Source: Eledone cirrhosa (Eukaryota). Taken from it: 64,000 bases of DNA. The stretch's first letter is position 1; every line of letters starts with the position of its first letter. Below are positions 27,191 through 42,893 of this stretch, in pieces. The DNA is taken from NCBI GenBank assembly GCA_964016885.1, contig OZ024754.1, positions 16,678,001-16,742,000 on the forward strand, written 5' to 3'. The position numbers and the translations under genes are program-made. The notes beneath the pieces are model-generated. The model did not search any database. It saw only the letters and a program-made list of their open reading frames with translations, and was not told where the DNA came from.

Positions 27191-27453
27191 AGTAATAATA
27201 ATAAATTTGAAGACTAAAATACAAAGAGGGCTCGATAAGGATAAATATATATCAAATATATAAGAACCGTAGTAATATATGTAATATATATATGTATATA
27301 TATATATTACATATATATTTATTAAAATAACAGATTAAAGTTTAAACAAAGAATCGCTGCTTTCACCCTTAACGGGATCTTCTGAAACTAACAAAGTCAA
27401 TCTGTAAACGCAGAAGTGGATATTTCAAAAACTTTGGTTCGTGGAAACGTTCG
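27191..27453 (-). mobile_element. Solo copy of the Penelope pLTR (direct repeat of 31573-31832) with variant hammerhead at 27331-27404
   Basis: Closely matches 31573-31832 apart from indels. Confidence 0.85.
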
Positions 27454-27489
27454 TTGGTAAATATATATATTAATATATATATATATATT

Positions 27490-27783
27490 TCATCATCATC
27501 ATCATCATCATCATCACCGTTTTACGTCCGTTCTTCCACGCTAGCATGGGTTAGACGGGTTGTCCTGTTGTGGTCGGCTGACCATGACTTGCTCATACAG
27601 GAACTGATTTGGCTTGATTTCTACAGCTGGATGCCCTTCCTAACACCAACCTCATTTACAGTGAGTGCTGGGTGCTTTTTCGTGGCGCCTACGCGTCCAC
27701 TTTACAGTGTGGGCTGGGTGCTTTTTTGCCGTGGCACCTCCACGACAACCTTGCAGTGGGGTGTGTGGGGGCATATTGTCTAT
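27490..27783 (-). mobile_element. RTE LINE 3' UTR fragment
   Basis: Reverse complement matches 16885-17170; (ATG)n tail. Confidence 0.9.
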
Positions 27784-27790
27784 ATTTATA

Positions 27791-27837
<47 letters not shown>

Positions 27838-27947
27838 TTATATTATATATATATATTTATATTATATATATATATATTATATATATATATTATATATATA
27901 TATATATTTATATTATATATATATATATATTATATATATATATTTAT

Positions 27948-27978
<31 letters not shown>

Positions 27979-28078
27979 ATATCTATTTATATTATATATA
28001 TATTTATATATATATATTTATATTATATATATATTTATATTATATATATATTCATATATATATATATATATATATATT

Positions 28079-28120
<42 letters not shown>

Positions 28121-28243
28121 TATATATATATATATATATATATTTATATTATATATATATAATATATATATTTATATTATATATATATAATATAAATATA
28201 TATATATATATATATAATATAAATATATATATATATATATATA

Positions 28244-28281
<38 letters not shown>

Positions 28282-28400
28282 AATATATATATATATATAT
28301 AATATAAATATATATATATATATAATATATATATTTATATTATATATATATATTTATATTATATATATATATATATTTATATTATATATATTTATATTAT

Positions 28401-30528
28401 ATCATCATCATCATCATCACCGTTTTACGTCCGTTCTTCCACGCTAGCATGGGTTAGACGGGTTGTCCTGTTGTGGGCAGTGTCTGGTCGGCTGACCATG
28501 CCTTGCTCATACAGGAACTGATTTGGCTTGGTTTCTACAGCTGGATGCCCTTCCTAACACCAACCTCATTTACAGTGAGTGCTGGGTACTTTTTTTCCGT
28601 GGCGTCTACACGTCCACTCTACAGTGTGGGCTGGGTGCTTTTTTTCCGTGGCACCTCCAAGACCACCTTGCGGTGGGGGGGCCCGGGGGCATATTGTCTA
28701 TATGCTTCAGCTTGTACCAATGGGAGGTCTACGCATCATACAGTCGGATACACGCATCATACAGTCTGCCTTTCATTCTGAGGGAGAAGCCTTTTGCAGC
28801 TAGCAGTGGTAGTAGTTCCCTAAACTTCTTCCATCCCATCCTTACCCTAGTTATTGCACTTTCTGAACACCCACCTCCGTTGCTAATTCGGTCACCTAGG
28901 TAGCAGAAGCTGTCAACTGTTTCTACAGGGCCCTCCCAGAGATTGGTGGTACTTGTTTCCTGTGGCTGTTTGCTGTTTGCTGTCTCAGCACAGCTGCTGC
29001 ATGTGAATCCTACATTCTTAATTAAGCTTCCTGAGATCCCGCTACATCTCTTGTGTACCCATTGTTTGTATTTGGGGCAGAGAATGGAGTTCCTACCTAC
29101 ACCTTTCCTACATACTGAGCAAGGCCATTTCCCTGAGGGGATCTGGGTTCTGTTTTCTCGTCTACTTACAAGGACCTTAGTCTTTGTCATGTTGACTTTG
29201 AGACCCTTTCTTTCTAGTCCCTGCTTCCAGGTTTGGAATTTATTCTCTAGTTCTACCATAGATTCAGCTATGAGTGCGAGGTCATCAGCATACAGGAGTT
29301 CCCATGGGTATCCGGTCTTAAACTCCTCCGTTATTGCCTGCAGGACTATGATGAACAGGAGAGGGCTAAGAACAGAGCCCTGGTGGACCCCAACCTGTAC
29401 ACTAAATTCCTCGCTATACTCATTGCTAATCCTAACTTTGCTGACTGCTCCCCTATACATGTCTTGTACCGCTTTCACAAGCTATTCATCTACTCCTAGT
29501 TTTCTAAGAGCCCACCAGATTACTGCACGTGGAACTCTGTCAAAGGCTTTCTCAAGGTCGACAAATGCCAAGTAGAGTGGCTTACTTTTAGCTAGGTACT
29601 TTTCCTGTAAATTGTCTCACAAGGAAGAGGGCATCAGTGGTGCCTCTTCCTGGTACAAACCCAAATTGCATCTCGTCTATTTTCACCTGGTCCCTAATCA
29701 GCTGTGCTATAACTCTTTCTGTTACTTTCATGACCTGGTCCATCAACTTTATACCTCTATAGTTTCCTCTATCTAGTGCATCGTCTTTACCTTTGTAGCA
29801 GTTGACAATGATGCTACTGCACCAATCTTTTGGTATGGCCCCTTCTAGTATTACCTGGTTAACGATACGTGTGGTTATAGTGTGACCTACAGACCCAGAT
29901 GCCTTCAGCATCTCGGCAGCTATACCCGATGGACCGGTTGCCTTCCCCATCTTCATATCTCTGATTGCCTTACTTACTACACTGCCGCTGACTTGTACTG
30001 CTGGTCCCTCTATAGGTTCTACTTGGAGTAGGGTCTCTTCTTCCCATGCATTCTCCTCATTTAGTAATCTATCATAATGACTCTTCCATGCATCTTTCTT
30101 CTCAGCACTTGTGAGGGCAAGCTCACCTTTATCATTCCGGATACACTTCTCTCCAATGACATCACAACTATCTCTGACACACTGCCTCGCAATCTTGAAC
30201 ACCTCCTGTTTCTGGTCCTCACGTTGTAAAACATGCTTGAATTTTCTATCCTCTGCTTCCCTCCTAGCTAAGTATACTTGTCGCCTAGCTTCCCTCTTGG
30301 TCTCTATGTAATGTACCCTGCTCCCCCCGTTCTTCCATTCTTTCCATGCCTGTCTCTTGGCCTTGACTGCTTCATCTACCTTATTGTTCCACCACCAAGT
30401 CACTCTCCTCCTGCTTGAGGTCTTACTCCAGCCACAGACCTCGTCCGTCGCCTCTAGTAAATTATTTTTTAGGAACTCCCAGTTCTCTTCTACATTAAAT
30501 GTCTCTATCTGTTCTTCTTTACTGTCGT
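28401..30528 (-). mobile_element. 5'-truncated RTE-BovB-type LINE, frameshifted, with internal 3' deletion
   Basis: TWWWN, NYRGIKL, QFGFVPGRGTTDALF, GVHQGSVLSPLLF, YADD and a Cys/His finger; 3' UTR and tail at 28401-28728. Confidence 0.96.
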
Positions 30529-30537
30529 ATATATATA

Positions 30538-30587
<50 letters not shown>

Positions 30588-31141
30588 ATATATATATTTA
30601 TATTAAATATATATATTTATATTAAATATATATATTTATATTATATATATATATTATATATATATTTATATTAAATATATATATTTATATTAAATATATA
30701 TATTTATATTATATATATATATTATATATATATTTATATTAGATATATATATTTATATTATATATATATATTATATATATATATATATTATATATATATT
30801 TATATTAAATATATATATTTATATTATATATATATATTATATATATATTTATATTATTATATATATATTTATATTATATATATATATTTATATTATATAT
30901 ATATATATATATATATAGTTATGTAATAAACAACATAAGGCAATTATTTCATTTACCAGTGGTTTCTTAAAAGCAAAAAAATGTTGCTTTCAATCATCAG
31001 AATGAAAAAATCCTGGTGTATTTATTGACGTTGGATTTTAAAAACAAAAATGCAATCTATATGAAAGTGACGCTGGAAAAGGAAGAAGGAAAGGAAAAAT
31101 AAAATAAAAACACACATGCAAACACACACACAATCATATAC

Positions 31142-31173
<32 letters not shown>

Positions 31174-31317
31174 ATACACACATAAATACACACATACATA
31201 CACACACACACATGTATATATATACATACACATACATTAAGCTCTGTCACCTACATAGAGCACTCTTTTTTCCTGGACTTTTCCGATGGAATTACTTCAC
31301 ACATATATATATATATT

Positions 31318-31355
<38 letters not shown>

Positions 31356-31572
31356 TATATATATATATATATATTTAAATTATATATATATATATATTTA
31401 TATTATATATATATATATATTTATATTATATATATATATAAATATTTATATTATATATATAAATATTTATATTATATATATATATATATTTATATTATAT
31501 ATATATATATATATTTATATTATATATATATATATATTTATATTATATATATATATATGTATATGTAATATA

Positions 31573-32710
31573 TAGTAATAATAATAAATTTGAAGACTAA
31601 AATCCAAAGAGGGCTCGATAAGGATAAATATATATCAAATATATAAGAACCATAGAGCAAATATTTATTAAAATAACAGATTAAAGTTTAAGCAAAGATT
31701 CGCTGCTTTCACCCTTAACAGGATCTTCTGAAACTAACAAAGTCAATCTGTAAACACAGAAGTAGATATTTCAAAAAACGTTGCAACCGGAGGAAGACAG
31801 GAAGACGATACTTTGGTTCGTGGAAACGTTCGCTATGCAAATAAGTAATGGTATAAACAAAACATATACTTAGCTCCCACATCAAGACGTAAAATATCCA
31901 CGTATAAATCGTACTATCCGTTAGGATATAACGTGGTGCTGTAATACAGGAAAGTTTTGTGCAATTTATGTTTACAAGCCGAAATTGCCTCAGATTTTTT
32001 GTTTAAGATGTGGTCTATGGCGTAGAGTATTTCCAGGGCCTCAGCGGCGCAGAGGTCACATGGTCTTTTATTTCCGTTATACGATCTAGCCCTAGCTAGG
32101 ATCTCCCAGTGTAACTTATATTGGGTGTGGTTGTCTTTTAGACTCCAGATATAAGCTGAAAGTGACGTCATATTCCTTCTTAGAGGGTAACAAAAAGAAT
32201 GGGTATGCATGTAAAGACGCTGCTTGAATCTATTGGCGGTTAACCCTATGTAGGCCCTACGGGACGTGGGTGTTACAACCTTACATTTGTAGACAATGTT
32301 ACTAGAGAGGCATTTCCCGGATAGGGGGCAATCAATCCGATTCCTACAATTACAGTTAGTACTAACTACAGGGTTGCACGTGTTCCTACGGCTAGGTAGT
32401 TTAGCTAAATTTGAAGCTGTGATGTTATGTGCAAGGTTAGGAGTCGTAGAGTAAGAAATTTTAATAGTATTTCTATTAAAAATTTTACTATATTTATGTG
32501 TAGGGAGAAAATGCTTCGTAATAAGGGAGAGAAAGATCTTAGCTAAAGGTGTGGCCACCTCCATATTATATGGTGGGTTATACCAACAAATGCGACGGGA
32601 TCTATTTCTTCTAGGTCTATTTTCGTACTATGTATATGCTACCTTATCGACAAATCCACTTTGAGCAAGAGCTTCATTGTAATAAGTGGAATGGTCGTTG
32701 AAAATATAGT
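31573..32710 (-). mobile_element. Penelope-like element 3' portion: GIY-YIG endonuclease plus pLTR
   Basis: KIFNRNTIKISYS...CNCRNRIDCPLSGKCLSSNIVYKC...YIGLTANRFKQRLYMH...TSLSAYIWSLK...CDLCAAE...LNKK (ORF 31914-32564); pLTR ~31573-31900. Confidence 0.93.
31677..31750 (-). ncRNA. Variant type I hammerhead (A4 core) in Penelope pLTR
   Basis: Minus strand: AGTTT-CAGAAGA-TCCT(GTTA)AGGGT-GAAA-GCAG(CGAATCT)TTGC-TT|AAACT, with a distal stem CAGATTGA/TTAATCTG. Confidence 0.6.
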
Positions 32711-33051
32711 AAAATATAGTAAAATATAGTAAAATTTTTATGTAATATATATATATACATAATATATATAAATATATGTAATATATATATACATAATATA
32801 TATAAATATATGTAATATATATATATACGTATATATATATATTACATATATATATATATATATTATATATATAATATATATATATATATATAATATATAT
32901 ATATATATATGTAATATATATATATATATATGTAATATATATATATATATGTAATATATATATATATGTAATATATATATGTAATATATATATATATGTA
33001 ATATATATATATATGTAATATATATATATATATGTAATATATATATATATG

Positions 33052-33311: not shown

Positions 33312-34116
<805 letters not shown>

Positions 34117-42370: not shown

Positions 42371-42893
<523 letters not shown>

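Follow-up and report, generated by a model that had tools for sequence, protein, structure and literature searches.

Penelope-like elements of the Hydra clade carry type I hammerhead motifs near their 3' ends, and all 25 published hammerheads of this clade have U at core position 4 (PMC8557442). Family-wide core variants are known among metazoan Penelope-like hammerheads, namely U3-A8, and a position-4 variant is not mentioned in the accessible part of that description (PMC4209133). In other systems, single mutants of the CUGA core all showed low activity in a pairwise mutagenesis (PMC9901934), a viroid U4C variant was weak in vitro yet infectious (PMC3088659), and the hammerhead of an anole element needs protein for catalysis and is dispensable for insertion (PMC11167929). 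Here we analyzed a 64,000-nucleotide stretch of the Eledone cirrhosa genome (assembly GCA_964016885.1, contig OZ024754.1, positions 16,678,001 to 16,742,000; hereafter the window), which contains two copies of a Penelope-like element bearing a hammerhead motif with A at position 4 (A4).

No natural U4A hammerhead was found in the literature, where mainly openly readable papers were covered and an earlier record is possible. As far as the accessible texts go, the term "U4A" is absent from PMC3088659, and a change of position 4 to A is not described in PMC6765202, PMC6155905, PMC11014351, PMC13282606, PMC2837043, PMC3376415, PMC2377424 or bioRxiv 10.64898/2026.07.22.740005. Descriptor searches that require CUGANGA overlook families of this type. 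With a supposedly essential core base altered in at least 26,000 copies and a fold that appears to be conserved, the family represents a natural experiment on the role of the hammerhead in Penelope-like elements.

The A4 hammerhead and its family

The two copies, called right and left below, and their hammerheads are located as follows (the intron and the long 3' end are described further on).

31576..32706, minus strand: right copy, a 5'-truncated Penelope-like element that fits the Hydra clade, approximately 98.5% identical to the family majority sequence
27193..27457, minus strand: left copy, a short insertion, best read as independent, that starts at the intron 3' end and has the long end
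31676..31751, minus strand: A4 hammerhead of the right copy, with distal stem I formed by 31751-31743 and 31684-31676
C3 at 31730, A4 at 31729, predicted cut after U17 at 31690, minus strand: hammerhead positions of the right copy, with the inferred transcription start at 31735
27330..27405, minus strand: A4 hammerhead of the left copy, with C3 at 27384, A4 at 27383, the predicted cut after 27344 and a private C-to-T change in stem III

On the minus strand, CAGAAGA-TCCYGTTAAGGGT-GAAA is present at 31730 and 27384, 4,346 bp apart, each time with a stem III and a stem I partner. The original prediction had read CAGAAGA instead of CUGANGA in both copies of the pseudo-long terminal repeat (pLTR), and this was confirmed in both. 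It had also stated that stem I goes on beyond an internal loop, which holds: stem I consists of AGUUU/AAACU (5 bp) and, beyond a bulge of 7 nt, an extension of 9 bp that pairs. Stem III has 5 bp and a 7-nt loop, with the predicted cut after CUU, and stem II is a 3-bp CCC/GGG helix. The further statement that all three stems pair is right as to the pairing, and left unmentioned a mismatch at the closing position U10.1-U11.1 of stem II. Of the features expected of a type I hammerhead, the family thus has A in place of U4 and U-U in place of the G10.1-C11.1 closing pair. The U10.1-U11.1 closure is a known tolerated variant (PMC3088659), present in 14 of 25 Hydra-clade families (PMC8557442). The positions C3, G5, A6, G8, A9, G12, A13, A14, A15.1-U16.1 and H17 are each at least 98% conserved in 216-227 aligned copies. 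Genome-wide, the A4 core pattern has 26,172 exact matches and a reversed control pattern has none, so the motif is not a product of chance.

Whether most family members read U4 was left for checking by the original prediction. With the flanks fixed, 12,599 of 12,696 exact matches in the genome have A at position 4, 35 have U and 62 have C or G; A4 is the family consensus, and U4, at 0.28%, lies at the level of point mutation. In an unbiased sample of 100 copies picked by a downstream anchor, A4 was found in 74 of the 77 copies covering C3, and the other three were strands of fold-back junctions with T. In contigs of public runs, position 4 was unaltered in the matches listed. A search for older subfamilies returned 257 matches; among 100 listed, position 4 was A in 97, U in 2 and C in 1, while N7 was A in about 64, U in 28, G in 7 and C in 1 (counted by eye, a few of the rows being variants of the young family), and loop II had at least five forms. 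We infer that A4 predates the subfamily splits, being fixed in young and old subfamilies. U4 is taken as ancestral because it is present in the 25 published Hydra-clade families and in about a dozen other hammerhead motif families of the fetched loci. In the flanks of these loci approximately 14 distinct hammerhead motif families were seen, and the genome is very rich in hammerheads.

A second Penelope-like family of similar build, with 35% protein identity, has C fixed at position 4 in 100 of 100 listed out of 2,001 exact matches. This C4 family, found at loci L241-L252, L291-L293 and L178, the last within 8 kb to the right of the window, has a CxCX5C linker, an asparagine-rich spacer and a mismatched 10.1-11.1 position. 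A candidate second A4 family with a GTCAC stem was dropped, having 1 match only. An apparent U4 sister subfamily (884 matches) was also rejected, as 27 of the 30 copies fetched were fold-back junctions centred on position 4. In all, 669 exact head-to-head junctions are centred on this position, at the near-palindrome TTC-A-GAA; one of their strands reads a canonical CUGAAGA core without its stem I partner. True U4 is seen in three linked copies at C9:23474980-23479288 (locus L056), which probably go back to one insertion event from a U4-revertant template.

The conservation of the fold was assessed by comparing the young consensus with the older U7 consensus. None of the 35 search-free paired positions changed, compared with 8 of 20 positions in loops, bulge and N7 (p = 1e-4). 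In a 25-row alignment, 92.5% of the cells pair in the type I stem order around the core, against 25-52% in slid controls, and this value was equalled in 6 of 500 shuffles. Judging from these sequence comparisons, the hammerhead fold is probably kept by selection, its stems staying constant while its loops change. A pairing-compatible difference in stem III between the two window copies had been pointed out; it does not represent covariation, the T of the left copy being a private change, with C in 222 of 227 aligned copies. One covarying pair was found at the end of the distal stem, which is U-A in 8, C-G in 5 and unpaired in 12 of the 25 rows.

Searching the genome (3.0 Gb) at the DNA level gave 2,299 candidates, of which 40 were scored; exact matches to a 25-nt downstream anchor number 31,726 genome-wide. 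Aligned pieces of at least 300 nt (124) have a median identity of 96% to the majority sequence. Full-length elements, which the original prediction had wished to see, are represented by locus L041, whose full unit of 3,259 bp is bounded by two pLTRs and contains one open reading frame (ORF) of approximately 709 codons from L041:2125. A single ORF with reverse transcriptase (RT) motifs plus a GIY-YIG endonuclease at the C-terminus is seen in L041, L045 and L047; it has DKT in place of DKG (SDKTGN) and RLRWRAF, an RWR that is a conservative variant of the N-terminal RWK. The right copy retains the end of this ORF.

31914..32627, minus strand: open frame of 237 codons with a CxCX5C linker and a GIY-YIG-type endonuclease with CxxC and CxH

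Immediately upstream of this frame, at 32628-32630, there is a stop in the same frame. The frame reads CNCRNRIDC in the linker, CDLC..E and N..ACKH, and CCHH was not seen; the endonuclease labels follow PMC8557442, and Pfam gave no GIY-YIG match on the window frame fragment. The 3' flanks of copies and contig loose ends show an insertion preference for (TA)n. By criteria taken from PMC8557442, and with the published Hydra-1_Obim alignment blocks compared by eye, the sequence fits a new family of Hydra-clade Penelope-like elements. The Neptune clade was dropped, since the linker is CxCX5C rather than CX2-5CxxC and CCHH was not seen. Two motif strings of the A4 family were not found in the accessible part of the PMC8557442 supplement.

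Shared with described Hydra-clade elements are the single ORF, DKT, RW(R), CxCX5C, CxxC/CxH, (TA)n targets, the tail, inverted pLTRs, a type I hammerhead near the 3' end and U10.1-U11.1 (PMC8557442). The A4 family differs from them in having A4 instead of U4, a longer stem III, a bulged 14-bp stem I, a 750-nt intron in the 3' untranslated region (UTR) and a unit of 3,259 bp (PMC8557442). Compared with the minimal hammerheads of metazoan Penelope-like elements, it is alike in the type I order, the position in the pLTR, the sense strand and the mostly dispersed, truncated copies, whereas its true 5-bp stem III and extended stem I could allow it to fold as a monomer and G10.1-C11.1 is lacking (PMC4209133).

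Copy ends and the start of transcription

Copies of the family end at either of two 3' sites. In the 100-copy sample, 54 had the short and 46 the long end, the long class including copies that run into the ORF. Both would be sites at which reverse transcription starts, and in the right copy they bound the tail.

31576..31662, minus strand: tail between the two 3' end sites of the family, with the short end at about 31662 and the long end at 31576

The predicted cut is upstream of both sites, and also of the contig loose ends of public runs; the RNA that was copied therefore spans the cut site. GCTC...GAGC sequences stand directly behind each 3' end site (L041:1999-2043 and 2086-2101), and both fold as hairpins.

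With one of the 100 copies left out as a misalignment, 99 5' ends were usable, of which 31 fall at -9..+4 relative to C3, with 10 exactly at -5; the 100 nt upstream hold 12, and the interval +37..+44 holds 2. Where a start at -5 is preceded by a non-template base, this base is G in 15 of 22 cases (p = 7e-6), approximately 6 of which could be partner-arm sequence; the count derives from 32 rows starting with AGTTT in searches of mixed design, from which 10 with a template-matching T or CTC were removed by eye. An untemplated G in L1 has been read as a reverse-transcribed cap (PMC9341517). Taken together, the 5' ends at -5 and the extra G suggest that the transcript is capped and starts at the first base of stem I. 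At this site the older subfamilies read TCAGTT, and we take T(C/T)AGTT to be an initiator-like word. No earlier report of a start site at stem I was found in the literature on the Penelope cap and start. An internal pLTR promoter and a spliceosomal intron retained in most copies are shared with Penelope of Drosophila virilis, with the difference that the intron of the A4 family lies upstream of the inferred start site (PMC2377424).

A control family with U4 (8,516 anchor matches, 30 loci) also has 5' ends near the core and none that is clear at the cut site. The absence of cut-site ends was therefore rejected as evidence against A4 activity. There are hints in the sequence that a start at stem I is shared with the U4 family of loci L181-L210. 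Copies at these loci have a conserved CA 8-9 nt before C3, with an extra G there in one copy, and covarying forms of stem I.

Head-to-head neighbours combine a long with a short end in 16 of 18 cases. Of 29 cases at the palindromic junction, 14 have the T strand continuing into the long arm and 15 have it continuing into the short or another arm. The long-arm cases are impossible for a single folded-back cDNA, whereas two cDNAs annealed with a central mismatch would explain both. Such an origin fits the two-site internal initiation on both strands described for the anole element (PMC11167929). Palindromes at head-to-head junctions are also known from the inverted pLTRs of Adineta vaga; for the A4 family, two sense-template cDNAs are favoured over the antisense-template self-priming proposed there (PMC3846280). 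The 5' junctions provide genomic evidence on where the RNA starts, on its cap, on its uncut state when copied and on a two-cDNA origin of head-to-head ends.

Possible states of the ribozyme

The reading we prefer, to which we give about an even chance, is that of a slowed but fold-conserved ribozyme, probably protein-assisted, that acts outside the insertion step. It is placed ahead of a dead fold, and this in turn ahead of a new active core, because of the CUGA mutants, the viroid U4C variant and the protein requirement of the anole hammerhead, together with the conserved fold. The family-wide change from U4 to A would slow self-cleavage. Transcription would begin at the first base of stem I, within T(C/T)AGTT, and yield a capped RNA. 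As the distal stem lies upstream of this start, the upstream hammerhead of the transcript would have the 5-bp stem I only, and the downstream one alone would have the full bulged stem. The element RT would initiate inside the RNA at the short or the long site, using each of the two nicked strands of a (TA)n target, and microhomology would join two cDNAs into head-to-head pairs. Because cleavage at one or the other hammerhead would cost a template unless re-ligation followed, more templates would be left by a slower ribozyme.

As in the viroid U4C variant, the same core position is changed and tolerated in vivo, with activity presumably lowered; the A4 family differs in the base, which is A, and in its fixation in tens of thousands of genomic copies (PMC3088659). 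Resemblances to the Anolis Poseidon element PAc include two internal RT start sites that bound the tail, cutting and extension of both target strands, AT-rich targets, an uncut RNA template and a protein-assisted hammerhead, the last only proposed for the A4 family (PMC11167929). PAc belongs to a different clade and its catalysis was demonstrated in vitro, whereas the A4 family adds, from genomic junctions, a cap-like G and a start at stem I (PMC11167929).

Several results weigh against the motif or against its reading as a slowed ribozyme. For a family-typical copy the hammerhead fold has -13.5 kcal/mol and the minimum-energy fold -15.6 kcal/mol, and the predicted occupancy of the hammerhead is at most 0.1% whether position 4 is A or U. 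Folding z-scores ranged from -0.9 to +0.4 with none significant, and folding energy was dropped as support for the motif. No Rfam hammerhead model matched an A4 copy, nor did one match a copy of the family that naturally has U4. Covariation is confined to one pair, unpaired in nearly half of the rows (12 of 25), among them the young family. The conservation of the core itself is weakly shown: with 0 of 12 against 8 of 20 positions changed, p is 0.014, yet the search pattern itself fixed 8 of these 12, and for the remaining 4 p is 0.26. The U4 control family likewise lacks clear cut-site ends, so uncut templates are not specific to A4. Only one lineage combines A4 with a high copy number, and the C4 family is far smaller. 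Finally, a dead fold to which protein binds should show the same conservation of stems. In the window, an Rfam scan listed no hammerhead among 150 of 247 matches, and a competing fold that pairs A4 with U16.1 was rejected at a computed probability of at most 0.10.

A possible, if somewhat unlikely, alternative is that A4 ended catalysis long ago and the sequence persists as a transcription start and as a protein-binding RNA structure beside the reverse-transcription start sites. The overlap of the start site with stem I and the uncut state of the copied RNA are in line with it. So are published findings: CUGA single mutants did not retain activity, and a second change restored it in none of them (PMC9901934), insertion in vitro was unaffected by catalytic mutants (PMC11167929), and Naiads multiply without canonical hammerheads (PMC8557442). 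Such a loss does not account for the remaining core letters, which are constant across the subfamily consensuses while N7, free in active hammerheads, varies. Nor does it account for the distal stem, which is conserved although it lies upstream of the start and hence outside the 5' transcript end. Nor is GAAA accounted for by a match resembling a downstream promoter element. If cleavage is indeed absent, the family would be a clear case of a retroelement thriving after the loss of catalysis.

Another reading is a working natural hammerhead with A4, a core regarded as nearly inactive, that is switched by its position in the transcript: the capped 5' copy, without the distal stem, would stay uncut, and the downstream copy would be cut with help from an element protein. 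We regard this as doubtful on the present sequence evidence. If true, the A4 hammerhead would be a built-in brake or processing switch, retuned independently with C4 in the second family.

It is improbable that A4 belongs to a fully active alternative core, cut efficiently only in the downstream copy with the distal stem and compensated by the 5-bp stem III with its 7-nt loop, the bulged stem I and a G...A loop II. In its favour, A4 has long been retained while loops turned over, the second family in the same genome has its own fixed C4, and stem III exceeds the 3-4 bp of the Hydra-clade table (PMC8557442); outer contacts are said to offset core changes (Perreault et al., PMC3088659). Against this, copies with body and downstream pLTR (L041, L042) derive from RNA that was uncut there, the predicted fold is weak, and pairwise mutagenesis rescued no CUGA change except by the C3-G8 swap (PMC9901934). 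Since U4 and C4 families of similar build are present in the same genome, a dead, a slowed and a rewired ribozyme could be told apart by their cleavage.

Layout of the window

The right copy reads, in order, the end of the RT thumb, linker, endonuclease, spliced 3' UTR, hammerhead and long tail.

31832..31833, minus strand: exact splice junction, lacking the 750-nt GT-AG intron that the full element has at L041:4334-5083
32707..32741, plus strand: junction at the 5' side of the right copy, where a short inverted piece, with its template inside the element (32477-32497) and with slippage repeats, precedes (TA)n

The intron is of spliceosomal type, sits in the 3' UTR approximately 80 nt past the stop and is kept in 41 of 43 informative copies of the 100-copy sample, the other 2 being spliced; contig loose ends at 31831-31834 carry intron letters. 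The right copy is a spliced retrocopy. The original prediction had placed the motif in sense orientation about 160 nt past the GIY-YIG stop, and the distances from the stop are indeed 184 nt to C3 and 163 nt to where the distal strand of stem I starts. This spacing arises because the right copy is spliced; in the unspliced element it is 933 nt.

The left copy aligns with the right one across pLTR and tail, apart from a 33-nt deletion at 27431/27432 and a 43-nt AT-rich block (27273-27315) that replaces 6 nt. It looks unspliced, on 3-4 informative bases only, and shares the long end site with the spliced right copy. Between the two lie the following features.

28403..30526, minus strand: long interspersed nuclear element (LINE) with RT (Pfam RVT_1), 5'-truncated, with a (GAT)n tail, inside (TA)n
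27491..27785, minus strand: second and shorter 3' fragment from that LINE family (90% identity), also inside (TA)n
30915..31120, minus strand: fragment of a different repeat family that carries a minimal hammerhead of the canonical U4 type (core 31000); a further piece is at 31236-31310

RTE is a putative label for the LINE pieces, which show an RVT_1 match and a simple-repeat tail. The distance of about 4.4 kb between the copies, around LINE and (TA)n sequence, had been noted correctly: two RT-bearing LINE pieces and (TA)n fill the 4,346 bp. The notion of an element split by RTE insertions did not survive, as the LINE pieces are flanked on both sides by (TA)n and not by the element. An interrupted tandem pLTR array fared no better, with no element body between the copies and a right copy that stops at its long end in (TA)n. 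In true tandems the upstream pLTR runs into the next ORF, as in L041, which the right copy does not do; within the 100-copy sample, a true tandem with one continuing and one short end accounts for the only close same-strand pair. The best reading of the two window copies is that of independent truncated insertions into a (TA)n-rich tract. It is highly improbable that a single tandem insertion left them as its two pLTRs after LINE and microsatellite DNA had taken the place of its body: the shared strand and subfamily letters, a 4.3-kb spacing set against a unit of 3,259 bp and the approximately 5% chance of a same-strand neighbour within 4.4 kb under uniform spacing speak for it, but body sequence is absent between them, the right copy ends long in (TA)n without ever reaching an ORF, both are long-ended rather than continuing and short, and they look spliced and unspliced, respectively (on those few informative bases of the left copy).

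The link drawn originally between the hammerheads of the window and Penelope-like elements stands for the A4 motif, which lies in a Penelope-like pLTR, and fails for those at 31000 and 42654/42795, which belong to other families with U4. At 28729-29481, the LINE frame has a cysteine-rich insert after the RT with a Pfam PHD match (E 5e-5). In (TA)n at 33341-33968, a further repeat family is represented by two copies that are partly inverted and have arms of unequal length; the hammerhead descriptor gave no match there, and this repeat is also seen at L025, L053 and L166. The hammerheads at 42654 (minus strand) and 42795 (plus strand) form a near-perfect head-to-head pair of minimal U4 hammerheads with a long stem II and a TATA loop III.

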